From: Candidatus Fermentithermobacillaceae bacterium DTU015
GTDB taxonomy: Bacteria > Bacillota > Sulfobacillia > Fermentithermobacillales > Fermentithermobacillaceae
Assembly (NCBI GenBank): GCA_001513185.1
Contig: LFST01000046.1
Coordinates: 171,739 to 235,738, forward strand
Length of the DNA stretch: 64,000 nucleotides
Direction of reading: 5' to 3'
Of the stretch, positions 2,678 to 48,126 are shown piece by piece (position 1 is the stretch's first letter; every line of letters begins with the position of its first letter). The notes under the pieces were generated by a model that saw nothing but the letters and a program-made list of their open reading frames with translations, made no database searches and was not told where the DNA came from. Made by a program: the position numbers and the translations under genes.

Positions 2678-4146
2678 GGAGCTGGCCTCTGGTTACACAG
2701 GAGCATCACATGCAAACTGGCAGCTTGCAGGCTAGCTGTACTTATAGATTGTTCCAAACCGCAGGCAGAGGATTCCATCGTGCCATAAACATGTTTTTTG
2801 CCTGGTTTGATACGGCTTTCAGACACAGCGCATGCGGCAGGACAGTTTTAGGTGCCCGGGAGATCTTCGCAAACTGGGCTCCTCAAAGCCTAGGTATACG
2901 GCTTCTCAAGCTGCTGCTAGTGCCTCACGGCAGCCCTGTAACCCAAGGTACTTTCTTGGGGATAGTGCTTGGGTTGGGCCCATTTTTGCCCACAGAGATG
3001 CAGATAATATGTTTTGCGTTCTTCTTGTTCCTGTGGCTATGGTGGCGGTGGGCCCACACAGCTTCCGGGGATGGTCTGCACCTTCCGTTTAGCGTGATGC
3101 TCCCGCTGGTGCTGCTGTTTCTGTTCATCGCCGGGGCGGCAGTGTCGTCGGTGGTGCCCAGGCGGAGTCTGATGAACCTGGTCTTATGGTGCTTTTATGG
3201 ATTGGTTTTTGCAGTTGCGTTTGATATGGCCAGACGGGGTGAAGAAGACACCATCGTCTGGCCCTTGCTTACCGGAGTCACCTTTTCAAGCATGGTGGGG
3301 ATATACCAGTACCTTTCCGGCTGGCAGGCTACCAAATCGTCCTGGCTTGACGAGAGGTTTCAGGACGAGATCACCCGGGTGGTAGGTACCTTCGACAACC
3401 CCACCTTTTTTGCCGAGATGATAGGTCTGGCGCTGCCCTTGACCCTCGCCCTGCTCATCAGGAACAAGAGCTTTAGGGACAAGGGCGTACTTCTGGTTTA
3501 CTCCGGGATACAAGGGGTGGCTTTGATCCTCACATGGTCCAGGGGAGCCTGGCTGGGGTTTTTCGCTTCCTTTGGGATGCTGGCAGTGCTGTTTGACAAG
3601 CGCTTGCTGCTGGTAGGGCTTGTTGCCGCCATGGTGGCAGTTGTCGCCGCGCCTCCTGTGATCGTGGAGAGGTTGCTTTCTTCGTTTAGCTTAGAGGACA
3701 GCTCCAATAGCTACCGGGTATTCATATGGCGCGGCTCCTTGGCGCTGTTAAAGGAGTATCTTTTCAGGGGGGTGGGGCTTGGGGCGGACAGTTTCGCCCA
3801 AGTCTACCCTGAGTACATGATTGTCCAGACTCCCGCGCCCCATGCTCACAGCACCTACCTGCAAATGCTGATTGAACTCGGGCTTTTGGGTTTCCTGGCC
3901 CTCATGTGGTTACTTGTAACCTGCGGCTGGCAGGCGCTGCGGGCTTTGTTTACCCACAAGGGAAAGACCTTTGAGAGATGGGCGAGGGTAGGGGTTTTGG
4001 CAGGGGTTGTGGCTGCGGTTGGCGGCCATATGCTCCAAGGCTTTGTAGAACATACCTGGTACAACCCGCAGGTGACCGTGGTATTCTGGGCGTGGGTCGG
4101 GATGGCCGCCGGCATTTCCTATAGCATGGAGGCAAAGGGGATATAA
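2674..4146 (+). CDS. O-antigen ligase/polymerase (Wzy_C) family membrane protein
   Basis: Multi-TM protein with a WSRGAWLGF Wzy_C-like block. GTG start overlaps the upstream stop. First ~108 aa are not membrane-like, so the true start may be the internal ATG 2998. Confidence 0.65.
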   Translation: MRSWPLVTQEHHMQTGSLQASCTYRLFQTAGRGFHRAINMFFAWFDTAFRHSACGRTVLGAREIFANWAPQSLGIRLLKLLLVPHGSPVTQGTFLGIVLGLGPFLPTEMQIICFAFFLFLWLWWRWAHTASGDGLHLPFSVMLPLVLLFLFIAGAAVSSVVPRRSLMNLVLWCFYGLVFAVAFDMARRGEEDTIVWPLLTGVTFSSMVGIYQYLSGWQATKSSWLDERFQDEITRVVGTFDNPTFFAEMIGLALPLTLALLIRNKSFRDKGVLLVYSGIQGVALILTWSRGAWLGFFASFGMLAVLFDKRLLLVGLVAAMVAVVAAPPVIVERLLSSFSLEDSSNSYRVFIWRGSLALLKEYLFRGVGLGADSFAQVYPEYMIVQTPAPHAHSTYLQMLIELGLLGFLALMWLLVTCGWQALRALFTHKGKTFERWARVGVLAGVVAAVGGHMLQGFVEHTWYNPQVTVVFWAWVGMAAGISYSMEAKGI

Positions 4147-40084: not shown

Positions 40085-40546
40085 CTACTCCTGGCCACCG
40101 TTGCCGACATATACGATCTGGCCTGACGGTAAGAGTCCTAGGTTATCTACTGAAGGATCTGCGGTGATAAGGGTCCCGCCGGAAACCTTGGCAAGGTACA
40201 CACACAAGCTTGTGCCCGGCTCAAGCCCTTGATGTTCCGACATGAGCCTTGCGGCTTCCAGGGCGCCTTCCTGGGTGACAGGTTCCACCTGGAGGGGGAG
40301 CTGGTCAAGCAATGCAAGCAGTTCCGCAAAGCAGTCAGGGTGCTGGGCAAGCCCTTTGTGGTATACGTGGACCATGTCCAGCGCCGTGATGCTCACTTTC
40401 GCCCCGCTGGCGTGGGCTTGTTCCAGGAGCCTCTGAACTACCTGCCCTTTCGGCGTGCCCTCCAGATACGCCATCAGCGCCGGAGCGTCGATTATGCAAG
40501 CTGAGTCACCGCACACTGACGGGCTATCATGACTGGCTGGCTTCAT
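40085..40546 (-). CDS. PIN-domain toxin (VapC-like)
   Basis: Conserved acidic residues in IIDAPAL and LITAD. SD GGAGA 9 nt upstream. Overlaps the upstream antitoxin by 20 nt. Confidence 0.65.
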   Translation of the reverse strand: MKPASHDSPSVCGDSACIIDAPALMAYLEGTPKGQVVQRLLEQAHASGAKVSITALDMVHVYHKGLAQHPDCFAELLALLDQLPLQVEPVTQEGALEAARLMSEHQGLEPGTSLCVYLAKVSGGTLITADPSVDNLGLLPSGQIVYVGNGGQE

Positions 40547-40757
40547 CAGTATGCTCTCCTTGACCGGTGTGTTTCCTGCTGAAAAAACCCAGCCCGTATC
40601 CTACCGGGTCGTCTACTTCAGGCACCAGTACCACCTTGCCGTCAAGGTCGTATACGGCAAACTTGGTTCCGGGCTTAAGGCCCAGCTTATTTCTTATATG
40701 TGCCGGGATGACTATCTGGCCTCTTGTAGAAAGGGACGTTTTGTGCAATGGATTCAC
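40527..40757 (-). CDS. AbrB/MazE/SpoVT-family antitoxin
   Basis: Swapped-hairpin motif TRGQIVIPAHIRNKLGLKPGTKF. Immediately upstream of the PIN gene. Confidence 0.65.
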   Translation of the reverse strand: MNPLHKTSLSTRGQIVIPAHIRNKLGLKPGTKFAVYDLDGKVVLVPEVDDPVGYGLGFFSRKHTGQGEHTDEASQS

Positions 40758-41240: not shown

Positions 41241-41274
41241 CGCCGGCCGCACCGGGGAGTGTGCGGCCTTTTGT
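41241..41274. terminator. bidirectional intrinsic terminator between the glutaredoxin gene (+) and the small peptide gene (-)
   Basis: GGCCGCAC-cggggagt-GTGCGGCC with a U-run on both strands. Confidence 0.65.
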
Positions 41275-41284
41275 CCTTCATGTA

Positions 41285-41374
41285 TTAGTCGAGTCCTAGT
41301 ATGAGTAGGATGAGAATCAGGAATACGATGAACGCAAGTTCGTCATCAAAGCACCGTCCGTGCCTGCCTCCCAT
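41285..41374 (-). CDS. 29-aa hydrophobic small peptide (YjcZ-like), not in ORF track
   Basis: Strong SD GGAGAGGAGG 6-7 nt upstream of the ATG. Sequence MGGRHGRCFDDELAFIVFLILILLILGLD. Paralogous to 47435..47614. Confidence 0.5.
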   Translation of the reverse strand: MGGRHGRCFDDELAFIVFLILILLILGLD

Positions 41375-41455
41375 GTCTGAGCCTCCTCTCCGGTAAACTC
41401 AATTCATATTATGTAAATCAGGAAAAGTTGCTACAGTCTCGGGGGAGTTTTGCAG

Positions 41456-41494
41456 GTTGCACCGGAGCCGGGTTTACCCTGTCTCCGGTGCAAC
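41456..41494 (-). terminator. 12-bp-stem hairpin downstream of the CotF-like gene (no U-tract)
   Basis: GTTGCACCGGAG ... CTCCGGTGCAAC stem with 15-nt loop. Confidence 0.4.
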
Positions 41495-41557
41495 CCTTTC
41501 CCGGCCGGGTTTTGCCGGCATCTGGGACGGTGCTTGCTGTACGAGGGTCAAAGCGAG

Positions 41558-42070
41558 CTACTGCGGGTTGTAGTAGCCGTGTTTTTGCATGTAATTGAAG
41601 ATTTTTTCACCGTGCTTTTGCTCGTCGTCCTGAATCTTCTGGAGGTCTCTTCTAAGCTGGGGGTTGGCTGACTCAAACACCGAAGTATCGTAGGCGCCTG
41701 AAATGAACTTCTCGGTCATGAGCATATCTTGGCACATGGCCGCGTCATCAGGCTGGCCCGCTTGCCCCCCCTGGCCTGCCTGGGTTTGACCCTGGGACTG
41801 CTGGTTCCAGGCATAGGTTTGGGCGTCAGCTTGAGCCATCTGCCCTTGTCCTTGTGCCTGGCCCTGTTGCATCCCGCTTTGGCCTTCCAGGTACCTGTTT
41901 AAGGTGTCGTAGTGGTTTTGCTCTTCTTGGGCCAGTTCGTTGAAAAGGTTGCGCAGTTCCTGGCACTGGGTCAGGTTGGCATACCCTCTGTACTTCTTGA
42001 TGCAGATTTCCTCATGGGCTAATTGATCTTGAATCAGCGATCGTTCTTTTTGAGTGAGCTGATGTGTCAT
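41558..42070 (-). CDS. spore coat protein F (CotF)-like, ferritin-like fold with Gln/Gly-rich insert
   Basis: N- and C-terminal Coat_F-like halves separated by QGQAQGQGQ low-complexity insert. SD AAGAGGTGA 5 nt before the ATG. Confidence 0.7.
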   Translation of the reverse strand: MTHQLTQKERSLIQDQLAHEEICIKKYRGYANLTQCQELRNLFNELAQEEQNHYDTLNRYLEGQSGMQQGQAQGQGQMAQADAQTYAWNQQSQGQTQAGQGGQAGQPDDAAMCQDMLMTEKFISGAYDTSVFESANPQLRRDLQKIQDDEQKHGEKIFNYMQKHGYYNPQ

Positions 42071-42409
42071 GGCTATCACCTCTTGTTAAGGATGCGGAAA
42101 AATGCCGCCACATATTCTTGAGACCAATAGGAACTTGCACTGGTTTTGATATGAAGCAGGTCTTGCATACGGCCTGAACAGTGCCTCTAACAGGCAGGCA
42201 GGTGTGGCCGCACAAATGGCTGAGCCAATTTGCCTATCTTGAAATTCTGATTTTGTGCGTCCTTGTCGAAAATAATGGTTGATTTATTGACTGCCAAACT
42301 ATATAGTGTAGAGTGGTAGGGTATCAGTGATGCATGAGACATGAATACCTTACCACCGGGATACCGGATGTGCCGATGGGGATTACTGAAATTATAGAAG
42401 GGTGATTAT

Positions 42410-43672
42410 ATGGCTCAGAAAACCAATCCATTCGAGAACATGCTCGAACAGCTAGACGCGGCCGCAGAGATCGCGGGATTAGACAAACAAGAGTACATAA
42501 CCCTACGTTATCCTGAACGGGAACTTACGGTTAACTTCCCTGTCAAGATGGACGATGGGAGCATCCGCGTGTTTACCGGCTACCGCGTCCAGCACAGCAC
42601 TCTCAGAGGCCCTGCCAAAGGCGGAATCCGGTTTCACCCTGACGTAGACATGGACGAAACCAGGGCTTTGGCAGCGTGGATGACCTTCAAGTGTGCAGTG
42701 GTTGATATCCCCTACGGAGGGGCTAAAGGTGGGGTGACAGTAGATCCTACCGGAATGTCCCAAGGGGAACTTGAGCGGATTACCAGAGCTTACACAGCAG
42801 CTATTGCAGATTTCATAGGACCCGAGAAAGACATTCCTGCTACAGACGTTAACACCACCCAGCAGATGATGGGCTGGATCATGGACACTTACAGCACCCT
42901 CACCGGCGTGTATTCCCCAGGAGTGGTGACCAGCAAACCGGTGGAAGCAGGTGGATCTCTCGGCCGCAAAGAAGCTACAGGATTGGGAGTCTTCTTCGTC
43001 ACCAGGGAACTTGCAAAGAAGCTCGATATAGATCTGGCCACCTCCACCGTTGCGGTTCAGGGATTCGGCAACGTAGGCAGCAATGCAGCCAAGTTCCTCT
43101 ATGAAGCCGGTGCCAAGATCGTCGCCGTAAGCGACGTATCAGGCGGGATTTATTGCGAAGACGGGTTGGACATCCCTGCCCTAATCGAGTACGTTGAAAA
43201 CAATCCTAAGAGAGTCATCGAAGGATATAAACAGGATGGAGTTAAGGCTACAGACAATCATGGAATCCTAACCTGCAAGTGTGACTTCCTGGTCCTGGCG
43301 GCTTTGGAGAACCAGATTACAGAAGAAGTCGCAAAAGAAGTTCAGGCCAAGGTTATTGTTGAAGGTGCCAACGGGCCCACAACCTTTGCAGGAGACAAGG
43401 TACTTGAAGAAAGAGGCATCATAGTCTCCCCTGACATTCTCACCAACGCAGGCGGAGTCACATGCTCTTACTTCGAGTGGGTCCAGAACCTGCAGCACCA
43501 TTACTGGGACCTTGAGACAGTCAACACCAACCTTGAGCGGATCATGGTCAAAGCGTTCAACGAAGTATACGAGACCGCAGAAGAGCTTAAGGTTCCCATG
43601 AGGATAGCTGCTTACATCGTGGCGCTTAAGCGGTTGATTGCTACTCAGAAGATTAGGGGAATTTTCCCATAA
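42410..43672 (+). CDS. gdhA: NAD(P)-specific glutamate dehydrogenase
   Basis: GDH catalytic motif KGGIRFHP...GGAKGGV and Rossmann motif GFGNVGS. Confidence 0.9.
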   Translation: MAQKTNPFENMLEQLDAAAEIAGLDKQEYITLRYPERELTVNFPVKMDDGSIRVFTGYRVQHSTLRGPAKGGIRFHPDVDMDETRALAAWMTFKCAVVDIPYGGAKGGVTVDPTGMSQGELERITRAYTAAIADFIGPEKDIPATDVNTTQQMMGWIMDTYSTLTGVYSPGVVTSKPVEAGGSLGRKEATGLGVFFVTRELAKKLDIDLATSTVAVQGFGNVGSNAAKFLYEAGAKIVAVSDVSGGIYCEDGLDIPALIEYVENNPKRVIEGYKQDGVKATDNHGILTCKCDFLVLAALENQITEEVAKEVQAKVIVEGANGPTTFAGDKVLEERGIIVSPDILTNAGGVTCSYFEWVQNLQHHYWDLETVNTNLERIMVKAFNEVYETAEELKVPMRIAAYIVALKRLIATQKIRGIFP

Positions 43673-43684
43673 GTTTATAGGTTT

Positions 43685-43718
43685 CTGTTGGGACCTCCGG
43701 AAGGAGCATTCCCAACAG
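43685..43718 (+). terminator. compound hairpin 13 nt after the gdh stop (no U-tract)
   Basis: CTGTTGGGA ... TCCCAACAG 9-bp stem enclosing a CTCC-ggaa-GGAG sub-hairpin. Confidence 0.4.
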
Positions 43719-44240
43719 ATAGGTTGCGGAGTCAGGTCTGCAGCAATAGTCTGAGCAAGTATGCAGAAGTGGTTGCGCCAGAGTTTGCAGTACCAAGCAA
43801 GCACAAGTTGCAGCCAGGAACGGAGCAAAGATGCACAACCGATAAAGCACTAGTTGAACAACATTGCGGCACTCATGAAGCTATAAACGGAGCAAGCATT
43901 GTACCAGGATAGGACGTAGCAAGAGACGCGGCAAGCAACCGAGCCAACACCGCCTACACACGACGCACTGGCTGCAGCAAGTACGCAGTAGACACAAACC
44001 AGGAAAAGAAGCAGGAGTTGTAGCAGGGACGCAGCATAGGATTCGGCCAAGACGAACCGGAATTCAGTGATGAGATTCACGACACAGGGGTTTTGAAACC
44101 GCACTGGGTACGATTCAAGGTTTTGGTCGATGCAGCATCCGACGAAAGAGTAACCGGAACAGGGAACGGAGCTTATATGCACCAATGTATGAACCGTGCT
44201 TCACACAACACGACGGAACTATACCGCAGCCTAGCGTAAG
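43719..44240 (+). ncRNA. T-depleted A/C/G-rich non-coding region, candidate structured or large ncRNA
   Basis: ~520 nt with only ~13% T on the plus strand and recurring GCAGCAA/AGCAAGC motifs. No SD-led ORF. Ends at a strong terminator. Confidence 0.35.
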
Positions 44241-44266
44241 AGGGCCCTTTTGAAGGGCCCTTTTAT
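44241..44266 (+). terminator. strong intrinsic terminator
   Basis: AGGGCCCTT-ttg-AAGGGCCCT 9-bp GC stem followed by UUUUAU. Confidence 0.75.
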
Positions 44267-44373
44267 ATTGTAGAATCAAGTCAAGTGCAAAGGTTTGGTT
44301 GCAAAAAGGTGGGTGTGGGTTGAAAGCCATGGGGTGCGGTGGCTGCGGAAGCAAGCCAAGTGAGGGGCCTAGC

Positions 44374-45069
44374 ATGTCCTGGGAATATGCAACACGGGTG
44401 AAGCACAATCCCGCATATGCCGTGGTTGTGGCAGGTGGCTCTAAGACCGAATCAGACCTCAGGGTGGTGGAACGCGCCTCTCTGGTGGTTGCAGCAGATT
44501 CAGGGGCTGAGTTTTTGAGGCAGCACAAGCTGGTTCCCGACATAGTAGTGGGGGATTTCGACTCTTGCCATCCTGATACCGTTGCTCGCTTCAGGGACCT
44601 GGGGGTGCCGGTGGTCTGCCTTGAGCGGGATAAAGACAAGACCGACACCGAGGTCGCACTGGATTTGATTGCGGGTAAAGGATTCGACACCGCAATCATA
44701 ATCGGCGGGACCAGGGGAAGGCGACTGGACCATGAACTGGCCAACGTATTCTTGATCGAGCACTATGCCAGAAAAGGCATGGATGTGATAATCCATTCCC
44801 AAGACTCTGTGATTTTTGGGGTATCCGGAGATGAAGGCGGCCCGGCGATACGGCGGCGGGTGTTTGCCGGCAACCCGGGTGACTGGGTGACCATAATGCC
44901 CATAACTTCCCGGGTTACCGGTGCTGTTTCGTCTAACCTCAAGTTCCCCCTCAAAGATGATGTGCTTTACAGGGGAAGCACCCTCGGCGTTTCCAACGAG
45001 ATGCTTGATAGCACCGCGAGCATAGCGATTACCTCGGGCTTTGCCCTGGTATTGCTCCATCCCAGATAA
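44374..45069 (+). CDS. thiamine diphosphokinase (thiamine pyrophosphokinase)
   Basis: TPK blocks VVAADSGAEF, VGDFDS and KDKTDTEVAL. ATG 44374 lies 6 nt after GAGGGG. The track ORF adds a Cys/Gly-rich 25-aa N-terminus. Confidence 0.8.
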   Translation: MSWEYATRVKHNPAYAVVVAGGSKTESDLRVVERASLVVAADSGAEFLRQHKLVPDIVVGDFDSCHPDTVARFRDLGVPVVCLERDKDKTDTEVALDLIAGKGFDTAIIIGGTRGRRLDHELANVFLIEHYARKGMDVIIHSQDSVIFGVSGDEGGPAIRRRVFAGNPGDWVTIMPITSRVTGAVSSNLKFPLKDDVLYRGSTLGVSNEMLDSTASIAITSGFALVLLHPR

Positions 45070-45086
45070 GCCCTGCCAACCTGCGA

Positions 45087-45911
45087 TCAGTTGCCAGGCA
45101 GCTCGCTTAAGGGCCTGCCTCTGGGATCGTCTCTGGCCGGCTTACCTATTGCCATCAATTCGCCTAAAGTTATGATTTCGTATCCGGCTGCCTTGAGATT
45201 TTCCAGTACCATGGGCAAGGCTTCGTGGGTTTGCTTCGCTGAATCTGATGCGTGGAACAGCAAGATGGCTCCTGGAAAAGTGAGCTTTGACACCCTCTCA
45301 ACGATGTACGACGCACCGGGGTTTTTCCAATCCAGGCTGTCAACCGCCCAGATCACCGTCTCGTAGCCGAGTTCCCTGGCAGTAAGCACCACCAGGTCAT
45401 CGTAGTCCCCGTTGGGAGGCCTGAAAAATTGGGGGATGGTGCCGGTCAGGTTCACCAGTATGTCGTGGGCTGACTGGATGTTTTGCTTGATAGCCTCTTT
45501 GCTTTCCTGGCTGAGGTTTACGTGTTCTTGCCCGTGGCTGGCGATCTCATGGCCGTCTTGGACTATGCGCGAAACTATCGATTTATAGTGGCTAGCCCAG
45601 GGCCCAGAGAGAAAGAAGGTAGCCTTTTGATTGTATTCCGACAGCACGTCAAGCACTTTGTCAGGGGTTTTGTCGCCCCATGATATGTCAAATGTAAGCG
45701 CCACTGCCTTTCTGTCGGTCTGCACGTAAAATACAGGCATTTCAGTGCCCATTGCAAGCCGCGGGTCGTACTCCTCGAACACGGGTTTTACTGCGGGCGG
45801 CCGCAAGCCGTAGTATATGCCCCCTGCTACAAGCAATGCTGCCACCGCTGCAAATGCTAACCTTTGCTTGACGAATGACAAGACCCTCTTTAATGCCCTT
45901 ATGATGAACAT
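45087..45911 (-). CDS. polysaccharide deacetylase family protein (NodB domain, N-terminal TM)
   Basis: NodB motifs TFDISWG, HGQEH and VLLFHAS. N-terminal membrane anchor. Confidence 0.85.
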   Translation of the reverse strand: MFIIRALKRVLSFVKQRLAFAAVAALLVAGGIYYGLRPPAVKPVFEEYDPRLAMGTEMPVFYVQTDRKAVALTFDISWGDKTPDKVLDVLSEYNQKATFFLSGPWASHYKSIVSRIVQDGHEIASHGQEHVNLSQESKEAIKQNIQSAHDILVNLTGTIPQFFRPPNGDYDDLVVLTARELGYETVIWAVDSLDWKNPGASYIVERVSKLTFPGAILLFHASDSAKQTHEALPMVLENLKAAGYEIITLGELMAIGKPARDDPRGRPLSELPGN

Positions 45912-46006
45912 GGAAATTCCCTCCGGGAGGCTGAGCCGGGGACCCTATCCCCGGCTCCGGTTGTGTTTGGTCCATATAAAAAGATAGTTTTAGCGGGAGA
46001 AAGATA

Positions 46007-47029
46007 TTACCTGTGGCGGGCTAAAACACGCCTCGTGCCGTCCTGGATTTCATCAGGCTCCAGGCGGCGTTGCTTGAGCCACCCCCTACGTATTCCCACG
46101 CCTGGCTTGTGTCTTTGTGCCGGCGGTTGTACCGGCGTCTTGATACACTGAGATGGCTGCTTTGAGACAGGTTTTGCTATTACCGACTCGCCGTCAGGCG
46201 ACAAGCTTATCTGGACTTCCTGTCCGTGTTTGCCGGGAGCCTCAGGCGGAGGCGGTCCGACTGGGGTGCTAGCCGGCTTTGACCTGGACTTTTCCAGCCC
46301 AGCCAAAAAGTTGACCAAAGAAACTATGAGCTTGGGGTCTAATCCAAAGCTGCCTTGGGAGGAAGCAGTTGGCTCCTCCTTAGATACCGCGGCTGCGTCG
46401 CCGGAGGCTTCAGGAGCTGAAGCGGGTTTACTCCTGGTCAAGGATGGGATCAGTTTCAGGATAGCCGAAATCAGGTTAGGGTCGATTCCCCCTTGTTTGC
46501 TGCCAAGGAGCAACGGTAACGCAGAAAGCAAGGGCGCCAGAGCATCAGGTTTAGCTGCCCCGCCTTGGGTACCTGGCAGTCCGGCCGGCTGCGCTTGTGT
46601 TTGGATGCTGCCTTGTGTGGCGGCCGGCTGTGCTATAGCCTCTGCAACGGGACTGTCTTTTGGTGAACCGGAGCTGCCGGCTGATGTTTCCGGGCCGGTG
46701 TCGCTCGGGGCAGCCTGTGTAGCCGGCCGGTCATCTCCGGTGGTATCAGGCCTGCCTGCGTCTAGCCCGGCTTCGTCCAAGCCGGTTCTGCGAGGGGCCG
46801 AAACCTCTTGCAGCTCGCCGGCGGCGTAAAACACTTCCAAAATCCCCATGAGGTTAAGCAGTGCAAGCAGTCCTGCTTTTTCCCGGACCCAAGCAGGATC
46901 ACCGGCACCTTCACTAGTCAAGCAAACCTGGGCAAGCCGGCTAAGGCTGCCGTTACTCACCGTTTGCTCCACTCCGTCCAAAGAAGCCAGCAAACTCCGG
47001 AGGTACTTTTCCACCCAACACGCCTCCAA
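46007..47029 (-). CDS. Pro/Ala/Ser/Gly/Gln-rich low-complexity protein
   Basis: Long ORF co-oriented with and overlapping the 3' end of the ybaB-like gene. Start ambiguous (GTG/TTG candidates between 46963 and 47029). Amphipathic segments among low-complexity tracts. Confidence 0.45.
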   Translation of the reverse strand: MEACWVEKYLRSLLASLDGVEQTVSNGSLSRLAQVCLTSEGAGDPAWVREKAGLLALLNLMGILEVFYAAGELQEVSAPRRTGLDEAGLDAGRPDTTGDDRPATQAAPSDTGPETSAGSSGSPKDSPVAEAIAQPAATQGSIQTQAQPAGLPGTQGGAAKPDALAPLLSALPLLLGSKQGGIDPNLISAILKLIPSLTRSKPASAPEASGDAAAVSKEEPTASSQGSFGLDPKLIVSLVNFLAGLEKSRSKPASTPVGPPPPEAPGKHGQEVQISLSPDGESVIAKPVSKQPSQCIKTPVQPPAQRHKPGVGIRRGWLKQRRLEPDEIQDGTRRVLARHR

Positions 47030-47303
47030 TTTCGGTCCTCAGCAAGGCCCGGGCCTTTCTGATGGCGTCGTTGACCGCCAGGGCTATTGCCTCTTCCAGC
47101 GTGGCCAAATCAAAAGGCCGCTCAGCCAGTTTGTTCCGGTCGATGGTTATGTGTTTGATGTTGAACCAGATATCTCCGGTTACCTTGACCAGCCCATCGT
47201 TGGCAGTGCCTTCCACCGTCATATCTTGCAGGTTTGACAATCTTGTGTTTACCTCGGACTCGATTTTTTCCATCTGCATGAGTAAACTCGCGAGGTTGTG
47301 CAC
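46953..47303 (-). CDS. YbaB/EbfC-family nucleoid-associated protein paralog
   Basis: GLVKVTGD and LEEAIALAVNDAIRKA blocks. GTG start 7 nt after SD GGAGGGAAC. Confidence 0.7.
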   Translation of the reverse strand: MHNLASLLMQMEKIESEVNTRLSNLQDMTVEGTANDGLVKVTGDIWFNIKHITIDRNKLAERPFDLATLEEAIALAVNDAIRKARALLRTEIGGVLGGKVPPEFAGFFGRSGANGE

Positions 47304-47434
47304 TTAAGTTCCCTCCAGTTCCCCTTGTTTCAGCATCTTATGCACATCTTGCCCGTGATGGTGCCAGCCATCAGCAATTTGGGAACAACTTCTGAAACCA
47401 CCAGGTTAAGGTTGGTTTTCTTCACCGTGTACCG

Positions 47435-47614
47435 CTAGGATTTCTCCGGGGCCCGCCGCTTTGAGCTCAGCAGCCCCACCGGGCTGTCATGGGCTCTTGG
47501 GTCGTTTTTGCCTGTACGGGCTGCGCTCGTACTAAAAGAGCCTGTGGCTGCCAGAAGCAAGATCAAAATCAGAAACAGTTCATACGGGTTGACGTCAACT
47601 CCGAAGATCCGCAT
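47435..47614 (-). CDS. 59-aa small membrane peptide, not in ORF track
   Basis: SD GGAGGA 6 nt before the ATG. Sequence MRIFGVDVNPYELFLILILLLAATGSF... with a charged tail. Paralogous core to 41285..41374. Confidence 0.5.
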   Translation of the reverse strand: MRIFGVDVNPYELFLILILLLAATGSFSTSAARTGKNDPRAHDSPVGLLSSKRRAPEKS

Positions 47615-47626
47615 CTTAATTCCTCC

Positions 47627-47938
47627 TTATGAATGAGATACCGGGTCACTTCCGCTTGACATGGTGAATGCCTGCACTAACCACAAAACTACCAGGATGA
47701 TGAACAAGGAAAACGCAGAATCAACCCTGGAAGCCAGGAGGTTCTTGGCTTGTTCCGCCAAAGCCGCGAGTTCGACGCCGTCAGCCAATGAAGCCGAACT
47801 CTCTGCAAGGCTGATCAGGGTATCTATCACATCCCGGCCCCTCTCTCCGGTAAACGGCCTTAGCGCCGAGACCAGGTCCAGCGTTTCCTTGGAAAGACTG
47901 TTGGCCACTGTAAGCCCTCCTTTTCGAGAAATGGTCAA
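47627..47938 (-). CDS. hypothetical protein with C-terminal TM helix
   Basis: 103-aa ORF directly upstream of and co-oriented with the small-peptide gene. TTG start, no strong SD. Confidence 0.4.
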   Translation of the reverse strand: MTISRKGGLTVANSLSKETLDLVSALRPFTGERGRDVIDTLISLAESSASLADGVELAALAEQAKNLLASRVDSAFSLFIILVVLWLVQAFTMSSGSDPVSHS

Positions 47939-48126
47939 GTTAGCGATGGATCATCACATAATATGAGGGACGCGGATCTTATGTTTACACCGGCAGGAGC
48001 AAATCAGAGGTGCAGGTGTTTGATGTTGGCCTTCTTGAGATATCCTTGGGGAGAACCTAAAAAGGTAAATTTGCGCCCAAAAGAGAACATTATGCCAAAG
48101 GCAGCTGAAAGAGGAGGGCGTAGCAC

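Follow-up and report, generated by a model that had tools for sequence, protein, structure and literature searches.

The 64,000-nt stretch of contig LFST01000046.1 that was analysed here, referred to below as the window, comes from Candidatus Fermentithermobacillaceae bacterium DTU015 and carries on its minus strand two very small genes for hydrophobic peptides, designated peptide 1 (29 aa) and peptide 2 (59 aa). Peptide 1 lies in the spacer between the genes for a Coat_F domain (CotF-like) protein and a YruB-type glutaredoxin, as named by Pfam/NCBIfam search, and combines a Gly-rich N-terminus with one very hydrophobic helix at its extreme C-terminus. Peptide 2 has a membrane helix near its N-terminus and a long basic tail, and is encoded within a cassette that specifies, in order, a 94-aa membrane protein, peptide 2, a YbaB-like protein and a Pro-rich protein. 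Both open reading frames (ORFs) lie exactly where an original prediction, made from the sequence, had placed them and have the translations it gave (Table 1). The same prediction had described the peptides as paralogs of YjcZ type with strong Shine-Dalgarno (SD) sequences and sporulation-flavoured surroundings. Endospore formation has been predicted for class DTU015 / Ca. Fermentithermobacillia (PMC10215811). Gene calls of this size are inconsistent in public records, so that whole families stay invisible: the identical peptide-1 sequence is called as a gene in two lineages (L001 and L003) and uncalled in a third (L002), and where the peptides are given a public name it is 'hypothetical protein'.

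Coding status and gene order

Peptide 1 is kept at the CotF-like/glutaredoxin site in eight lineages, across which its SD core GAGAGGAGG is unchanged and the surrounding intergenic DNA divergent. Among these syntenic orthologs, the ratio of nonsynonymous to synonymous substitution rates (dN/dS) was 0.03–0.3, with pairwise proportions of synonymous differences (pS) of 0.2–0.77 as against 0.01–0.29 for nonsynonymous differences (pN); the membrane core is invariant and synonymous sites are nearly saturated. Over the last 17 codons, variable sites were distributed 6/0/13 by codon position, the first-position changes being Leu CTN/TTR exchanges. Indels keep to whole codons, and the lineages use three different stop codons between them.

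For peptide 2, eight close homologs were found, the contigs comprising 12 syntenic loci from five other lineages, and an exhaustive profile search gave 22 representative homologs of 54–158 aa. A species-level genome scan with the 94-aa protein added eight more loci, all from uncultured 'Bacillota' or 'Candidatus Fermentithermobacillaceae' metagenome-assembled genomes (MAGs). The homologs are defined by the motif [IL][LF]G.[ED]..NP[YF].LFL[IV]L[IV]LLL[AG]A.G.F, followed by variable basic tails. The N-terminal 27 codons are almost invariant (dN/dS 0.01–0.10, versus 0.23–0.91 in the tail), variable sites in the first 28 codons are distributed 9/2/24 by codon position, and the sense frame alone is open in all nine lineages. 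The longer homologs (93–158 aa; P0161, P0164, P0166, P0169–P0172 and P0174) carry a C-terminal motif, HP(L/F)LR(V/L)RHKML(Q/K), which the 59-aa peptide of the window lacks.

Codon-periodic substitution and conserved frames thus indicate, by sequence comparison, that both peptides are the products of real protein-coding genes. The original prediction had staked itself on conservation of the frames in relatives, and these proved coding-like in eight and nine lineages, respectively; the strong SD sequences were likewise confirmed for both peptides and are conserved among lineages. The opposite view, in which the frames are open by chance in leader or intergenic DNA and the conserved entity is an RNA element, is hardly credible. 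In its favour, both ORFs are short and Leu/Ile-rich, and peptide 1 has an antisense frame that is open as well; the other alternative frames have stops in most or all lineages. The antisense frame is open because its third codon positions are common with the sense frame; its translation is poorly conserved, with 12 of 17 columns variable where the sense frame has five, and a start codon is not kept. Set against this view are also the codon-periodic substitutions, the codon-sized indels and varying stop codons, the lack of any Rfam family match anywhere in the window, and the existence of members on unrelated contigs that hold the same frame, SD and C-terminus despite different N-termini. By the substitution pattern and comparative data, a non-coding reading may be regarded as effectively refuted.

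The order of the four cassette genes is kept in the distant lineages L024–L026. At every locus, including L020 and L024–L026, peptide 2 follows a protein of 93–122 aa with a C-terminal membrane segment, and the overlap between the stop codon of that gene and the SD of peptide 2 was present in all 13 lineages examined, the same distant ones among them. The 94-aa partner in the window has a helical N-terminal part and the C-terminal membrane segment SLFIILVVLWLVQAF, and gave no Pfam, NCBIfam or PDB match, a PDB profile search included. The YbaB-like protein has PDB relatives in 1ybx, 1j8b, 1pug and 5yrx; its residues 20–83 also match weakly (E=5e-4) chain A of 7yjw, a 330-residue entry titled 'Membrane protein'. 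The Pro-rich protein matched neither a known family nor a solved structure, and its start is uncertain, since the mechanical ORF extends to 47029 and gene calls in relatives begin 11 or 61 nt into the YbaB-like gene. The polysaccharide deacetylase 3' of the cassette reaches 234.2 bits with TIGR02764 (PdaB), just below the cutoff of 237.4, over the full model length 1–191, and E=1.3e-34 with PF01522; it is probably co-transcribed with the cassette. The sporulation-type neighbours were identified as described, in the form of the Coat_F protein, the YruB-type glutaredoxin, the YbaB/EbfC-like protein and the PdaB-like deacetylase.

Around peptide 1, a hairpin stands 3' of the gene in all lineages, differing in sequence between them. 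A second, GC-rich hairpin, located between the CotF-like gene and the region upstream of peptide 1, probably ends the CotF-like transcript, in which case peptide 1 would be a separate transcription unit.

Table 1. Coordinates of the two peptide genes and associated features in the window.
Feature	Position	Strand	Details
Peptide 1 coding sequence	41285..41374	-	29 aa, MGGRHGRCFDDELAFIVFLILILLILGLD; ATG at 41374
Shine-Dalgarno of peptide 1	41382..41391	-	GGAGAGGAGG; 7 nt 5' of the ATG
Sigma-K-type promoter motif of peptide 1	41404..41435	-	-35 TGTAGCAA (41435..41428); 16-nt spacer after GC; -10 CATAATAT (41413..41406)
Bidirectional intrinsic terminator hairpin	41245..41268	.	Common to peptide 1 and the convergent glutaredoxin gene
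GC-rich hairpin	41455..41495	-	Between the CotF-like gene and the peptide-1 promoter; equivalents in L001, L004 and L014
Sigma-K-type promoter motif of the cassette	47955..47988	-	-35 GTAAACAT, AC at 47984-47983; 17-nt spacer; -10 CATATTAT (47965..47958)
Upstream partner gene (94 aa)	47627..47908	-	GTG start set by homolog alignment; 93-94 aa in relatives
Junction of partner gene and peptide 2	47621..47629	-	TAAGGAGGA; stop of the 94-aa gene overlaps the peptide-2 SD; intergenic gap 12 nt
Shine-Dalgarno of peptide 2	47628..47621	-	AAGGAGGA; overlaps the TAA stop of the upstream gene
Peptide 2 coding sequence	47435..47614	-	59 aa: MRIFGVDVNPYELFLILILLLAATGSF, then a polar, basic, variable tail of 32 residues; ATG at 47614
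YbaB/EbfC-like gene	46953..47303	-	Third in cassette; PF02575 E=1.8e-15; 3' of peptide 2 in every locus
Pro/Ala/Ser-rich protein gene	46007..46963	-	Fourth in cassette; about 320-340 aa; positional conservation in L024 and L025
PdaB-like polysaccharide deacetylase gene	45087..45911	-	3' of cassette; same place in all Fermentithermobacillaceae loci

The wider peptide-1 family and its relation to peptide 2 and YjcZ

Neither peptide 1 nor eight further relatives matched any Pfam or NCBIfam model. The family consists of peptides of 26–44 aa in which the N-terminus is variable and often Gly-rich, and the C-terminus, (L/F)(A/V)F..FLILILLILG(I/L)(N/D), is nearly invariant, the helix ending the protein two residues after the conserved Gly. 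A database search with a concatenated query of two peptide-1 variants returned only two proteins, P0155 and P0156. P0155 (51 aa) starts exactly as the peptide 1 of the window (MGGRHGRCFDDELAFIVFLIL) and then continues in another frame, probably through a frameshift caused by sequencing or assembly error in one metagenome. P0156 (MGSIGHGCGNFFGIDDELAFLLFLILILLILGVN) is a relative of peptide 1 in an unrelated genomic context; about 2.3 kb from it (L021:3730-4851) lie a radical SAM/SPASM gene, two GT4 glycosyltransferases and a CBM_3 protein. None of these types of gene occurs near peptide 1 in the clade of the window, so that a link to peptide modification is unlikely.

Searching metagenomes with a DNA pattern that encodes FLIL[IV]LLILG-x-[DN]-stop yielded 19 loci; the invariance of their C-terminal motif is partly a product of how the pattern was designed. 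Beyond the known lineages, these loci supplied seven further N-terminal types, several of them Gly-rich; new family members are MAGNTLFNEQLAFVIFLILILLILGIN, MGAKGEGVGLGGGIGGIFGGSSMLVFVLFLILILLILGIN, MSEVEAKGVGWGGSTMLVFLLFLILILLILGLN, MGAKGSALGLGDTFGALGASPIFPIFAFTLFLILILLILGIN, MGGIRMGAGTGVGTGIGPWFPMFAFTLFLILILLILGIN and MGMGFGTGGLWGTWVFIIFLILILLILGIN. A second paralog of 26 aa, MGHFLFDDRLAFIVFLILILLILGLD, was found in the window's own clade (the L033 type), occurring in L033, L040, L042 and L045 (CZCB01001344.1, FZPS01000176.1 and others), all within whole-genome shotgun sets that hold this clade, and its upstream region is identical in four assemblies. One metagenome (contigs Ga0187886_...) holds four types of the family, which is compatible with several copies per genome. 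A shared genomic context was looked for among the new members and none was found. Peptide 1 thereby defines a widespread family of small peptides that has no Pfam or NCBIfam model.

The idea that the two peptides are mutual paralogs and, in addition, members of the YjcZ family (TIGR01732/PF09680) is rather improbable on the comparisons made here. Between peptides 1 and 2, the longest common string is FLILILL, and alignment of the two families with hhalign gave 69% probability over 12 hydrophobic columns, both of which would favour a relationship. Against it, cross-scoring with hidden Markov models (HMMs) gave about 7 bits one way and 2–5 bits the other, shuffled membrane segments matching these values in 0.3–4% of trials, and when the peptide-1 HMM was run against all ORF pieces of the window, peptide 2 came third (E=0.88), below an unrelated ORF. 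The placement of the helix is also opposite in the two peptides, at the extreme C-terminus of peptide 1 and near the N-terminus of peptide 2. The paralogy that had been predicted is consequently not established, and the likeness is what two Leu/Ile-rich helices can share.

As to YjcZ, neither peptide and none of the eight further peptide-1 relatives matched PF09680 or TIGR01732 at E<=10, so that the family-model search suggested with the prediction came back empty. HMMER filters may hide very weak matches, and a purpose-built YjcZ HMM was therefore run with --max. It was made from 46 sequences carrying PF09680 and named YjcZ by NCBI. These hardly vary in the core FALIVVLFILLIIVG: F, VVLFILLII and the closing G are the same in all of them, and A, L, I and the last V are at least 90% conserved. 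At the position of this core, peptide 1 has LAFI(I/V)FLILILLILG. The unfiltered HMM scored -7 to 5.4 bits on the peptide-1 orthologs, within the range of their own shuffles; shuffled membrane segments reached or exceeded the best of these scores in 31 of 2000 trials and outscored most of the members much more frequently. With hhalign, six peptide-1 sequences aligned to YjcZ at 61% over 17 columns, with (L)AFIIFLILILLILG in register with (F)ALIVVLFILLIIVG, and the enlarged family of 14 members scored 20.6, above all of 200 column-permuted controls. The margin of the latter is small (maximum of the controls 19.8), its probability is 36% only, and its register is shifted with respect to the earlier alignment. 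For peptide 2 the probability was 5%. No bona fide YjcZ gene was present in the 554 kb of fetched loci, a sample of low power that has no bearing on whole genomes.

Membership of YjcZ thus fails for peptide 1, and its likeness is one of architecture and predicted regulation and not of demonstrable homology. The resemblance originally seen therefore stands for the build and predicted control of peptide 1, and falls for family membership and for peptide 2. The YjcZ architecture of about 30–60 aa with a Gly-rich N-terminus and a single helix is that of the peptide-1 family and not that of peptide 2, which has in common with YjcZ only its small size and membrane-bound nature. In both YjcZ and the peptide-1 family, the peptides are about 26–44 aa long, often with a Gly-rich N-terminus, and have one extremely hydrophobic, nearly invariant helix that ends in Gly; their genes stand alone at scattered sites, with more than one copy per clade and a sigma-K-type promoter (predicted here for the peptide-1 family). 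These agreements in size, composition, copy number and promoter type speak for a common family. The sequences themselves differ, peptide 1 having the core LAFIIFLILILLILG(I/L)(N/D)-COOH and ending two residues past its helix, whereas YjcZ has GFALIVVLFILLIIVG plus a Gly/Tyr-rich tail. They also differ in range: the peptide-1 family is found in class DTU015 and unidentified metagenomic lineages, and the retrieved sequences named YjcZ by their source records come almost all from Bacilli. To our knowledge, YjcZ is the sole named example among tiny late-sporulation membrane peptides, a class that is poorly understood. The yjcZ gene of B. subtilis has been assigned to the sigma-K regulon (PMC517825).

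Sigma-K-type promoter motifs and a predicted late mother-cell role

Upstream of peptide 1, the block GTA(G/A)CAACTT-N-TTACATAAYATRA is conserved in eight lineages, the rest of the spacer being unconserved apart from the SD; 5' of the 94-aa gene, the block GTAAACATAAg-N-TCATATTATGTGATGA is conserved in nine. Both were scored with position weight matrices (PWMs) for sigma-K, sigma-E and forespore promoters, built from mapped C. difficile promoters (PMC7438776, Tables S5 and S6) and having a training median of about 20–21 bits. The cassette promoter scored 19.1 bits with the sigma-K PWM, ranking first of about 128,000 positions in the window (sigma-E 8.3; forespore 3.1), and the peptide-1 promoter 16.4 bits, ranking third (sigma-E 4.7; forespore 7.5); the latter was not fitted by a sigma-70 scan. 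Mapped C. difficile sigma-K promoters have (G)TAACA, or in two cases TAGCA, as their -35 element, and the arrangement [A/G]C-N16/17-CATAnnnT in 21 of 25 cases (PMC7438776, Table S6). The motif CATATTAT has been termed a canonical mother-cell -10 box (PMC3789822), and the geometry of both the sigma-E and the sigma-K promoter classes has been described (PMC517825). The CATAATA noted earlier upstream of peptide 1, which had been read as compatible with a forespore or mother-cell -10, is indeed part of a conserved promoter motif of sporulation-sigma type, and it scores as sigma-K, hence mother cell, and not as forespore.

Three other assignments were considered and rejected. A forespore (sigma-G) reading of the peptide-1 promoter ranks 38th with its PWM. 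The cassette promoter could be read as a sigma-E promoter with ATA-N14-CATA; mapped sigma-E promoters have ATA-N16/17, and this reading was discarded because none has a spacer under 15 (PMC7438776). The second-ranking sigma-K match of the window, AGGAACAA-N15-ACATATTATCT at about 3000..3030 (-) with 17.0 bits, lies at about 3028 (-) within a coding sequence of the opposite strand, with no gene 3' of it and a local ORF that belongs to no family, and is probably due to chance.

The sigma-K-type element recurs in the wider family. An element (G/T)TAAC-N17-CATAnnnT was found 38–71 nt 5' of nine of 11 newly scored members, on contigs of 47–60% GC, and the upstream regions of 13 of 14 members reached at least 10 bits with the sigma-K PWM (nine of 14 at least 15.8), this set including five syntenic, non-independent members and thus about 9–10 separate contexts. 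In a control made of the 200-nt upstream regions of 197 ordinary genes on the same contigs, 4.6% reached 10 bits and the maximum was 13.8.

Besides this partial dependence among the scored members, and an invariance of the C-terminal motif that the scan pattern in part imposes, several points weigh against control by sigma-K or against an essential part for peptide 1. Sigma-E and sigma-K have a common -10 element, so that the assignment hangs on the -35 element and the spacing, and at the key -35 dinucleotide peptide 1 has GC, not AC, in seven of the eight syntenic lineages. The PWM derives from C. difficile, a distant and AT-rich organism. No sigma-K-type element lies within 200 nt of the L033-type paralog. 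Finally, in L019 (an 'uncultured Eubacteriales' MAG, CAZXLH010000001.1; 17665-17810), the neighbourhood is whole and peptide 1 is absent, the CotF-to-glutaredoxin spacer measuring 144 nt with only the terminator hairpin inside; from this it follows that the peptide is dispensable or has moved.

In an alternative reading, both genes would encode genuine small membrane proteins unconnected with sporulation, where the CATA elements would be sigma-A or other promoters or sites of an unrelated regulator and the neighbours coincidental. This alternative is unlikely, and it stays in consideration because the regulatory evidence is all motif-based and the reference organism distant. The peptide-1 block is readable as a weak sigma-A promoter (GTAGCA, 17 nt, TAATAT); in four of the eight syntenic lineages, however, the -10 is CATAAC/TAACAT, where CATAAC lacks the final T of the sigma-A hexamer and the shifted TAACAT matches TATAAT at only four of six positions. 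The adjoining CotF-like gene has a different conserved promoter with a poor fit to the three sporulation PWMs, most family members have non-sporulation genes as neighbours, and none of the sigma models fits GCATAAGATGC, a conserved element within the cassette. On the other side, the (G/T)TAAC-N17-CATAnnnT geometry recurs 5' of independent family members and is rare 5' of ordinary genes, the two promoters rank first and third in the window with the sigma-K model only, and a deacetylase of the PdaB sporulation type stands at the end of the cassette.

Taken together, the reading we favour, and consider reasonably probable, is that the window contains two unrelated, genuine genes for tiny single-pass membrane peptides with predicted late transcription in the mother cell under sigma-K, peptide 1 being YjcZ-like in build and peptide 2 part of a conserved, clade-restricted cassette. 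Both units would probably be switched on by sigma-K RNA polymerase late in the mother cell. Peptide 1 would form a monocistronic unit with its own conserved promoter, strong SD and terminator; made in the mother-cell cytoplasm, it may be tail-anchored through its C-terminal helix in the mother-cell or outer forespore membrane, with its Gly-rich N-terminus on the side of the mother-cell cytoplasm. There it is suggested to contribute, as a small component, to the structure or assembly of the spore envelope, in the way commonly supposed for the sigma-K-dependent YjcZ peptides of Bacilli. Peptide 2, as the second gene of the cassette, would be translationally coupled to the 94-aa tail-anchored membrane protein, and since its SD overlaps the stop codon of the latter, the ratio in which the two small membrane proteins are synthesised is probably constant; they may form a membrane complex. 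The working part of peptide 2 would be its invariant N-terminal segment, IFGV(D/E)VNPYELFLILILLLAATGSF, and the positive-inside rule would place its basic tail in the cytoplasm, alongside the YbaB-like and Pro-rich proteins. The deacetylase 3' of the cassette suggests a link to cortex maturation.

The build of peptide 1 also recalls the toxin peptides found in type I toxin-antitoxin (TA) modules such as TxpA, BsrG and Fst, which are likewise small, have one hydrophobic helix and are encoded by stand-alone genes with strong ribosome-binding sites. Under this very unlikely alternative, peptide 1 would be a membrane-damaging toxin whose translation is curbed by an antisense RNA. Its length of about 30 aa and strong hydrophobicity would fit, a convergent gene lies across the bidirectional terminator, so that antisense read-through is conceivable, a MazE/PIN pair is nearby, and copies of the family are scattered in unrelated contexts. 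The charged C-terminal tail typical of Fst/TxpA-type toxins is missing from peptide 1, which stops immediately past its helix. The opposite strand showed no conserved promoter, the 3' flank is unconserved apart from the hairpin, and the near-saturation of synonymous sites gives no sign of a constrained antisense RNA target; synteny between housekeeping genes is stable in the eight lineages. All type I TA modules of B. subtilis have sigma-A promoters (PMC10730256), unlike the peptide-1 family with its conserved sigma-K-type element.

Among known sporulation proteins, the 26-aa SpoVM forms an amphipathic surface helix and is under a sigma-E promoter. SpoVM and CmpA of B. subtilis, like the two peptides as predicted here, are tiny proteins made in the mother cell, and act at the forespore surface in envelope assembly (PMC10730256); the peptides of the window differ in having uniformly hydrophobic helices of membrane-spanning type, sigma-K-type promoters and no sequence similarity to either. 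The CD1980.2 family of C. difficile comprises 58-aa membrane-associated proteins that promote sporulation, are controlled by a c-di-GMP riboswitch, act on sporulation initiation and have no homologs reported outside C. difficile (bioRxiv 10.64898/2026.06.10.731418). It was rejected as a relative of the peptides; the window has no riboswitch by Rfam.

Should control by sigma-K prove right, the peptide-1 family would form a second, sequence-distinct group of tiny late-sporulation membrane peptides beside YjcZ. In uncultured spore formers it would then be a new means of marking the sigma-K regulon, and in metagenome-assembled ones a simple marker for late mother-cell genes. A definition of the family is supplied by its length of 26–44 aa, its C-terminal motif and its promoter type, and covers several uncultured lineages. 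It may tentatively be proposed, as a possibility that we regard as doubtful at present, that this family is an unrecognised counterpart of YjcZ outside Bacilli, that tiny Gly-rich tail-anchored peptides of the late mother cell are general among endospore envelopes, having evolved repeatedly or being very ancient, and that the cassette is a new sigma-K-controlled membrane module particular to class DTU015 and its relatives. YbaB-fold proteins are normally read as nucleoid proteins, and it is unexpected that the cassette ties one of them to a membrane and cortex-modifying context. No major model is changed by either peptide.

Other elements near the two genes

For the CotF-like gene, the most likely start is the ATG at 42070 (MTHQLT...), not the GTG at 42079. 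Upstream of it, at about 42080..42130 (-), the gene has its own block, aGAATAtGT-N-TTTtTccGCATCCTTAA-N-GAGGTGAT, conserved in nine lineages, which has the loose look of a forespore promoter (GAATA ... CATCCTTA); it scored 6.4 bits with the forespore PWM and poorly with those for sigma-K and sigma-E. On the other side of peptide 1, just past the glutaredoxin gene, a pair encoding a MazE-like antitoxin and a PIN-domain toxin occupies 40085..40757 (-) and is syntenic in all related loci.

The spacer that separates peptide 2 from the YbaB-like gene, divergent elsewhere, contains the element GCATAAGATGC at about 47333..47343 (-), 39 nt 5' of the YbaB-like GTG at 47303. This element is partly palindromic, is preceded by a conserved CACC and is nearly invariant in nine lineages, L007 having GCATAAAATGC. 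The element was rejected as a promoter, scoring at most 5.3 bits with the sigma-K and sigma-E PWMs in spite of its CATAnnnT core, and could be a regulator site or an RNA element.

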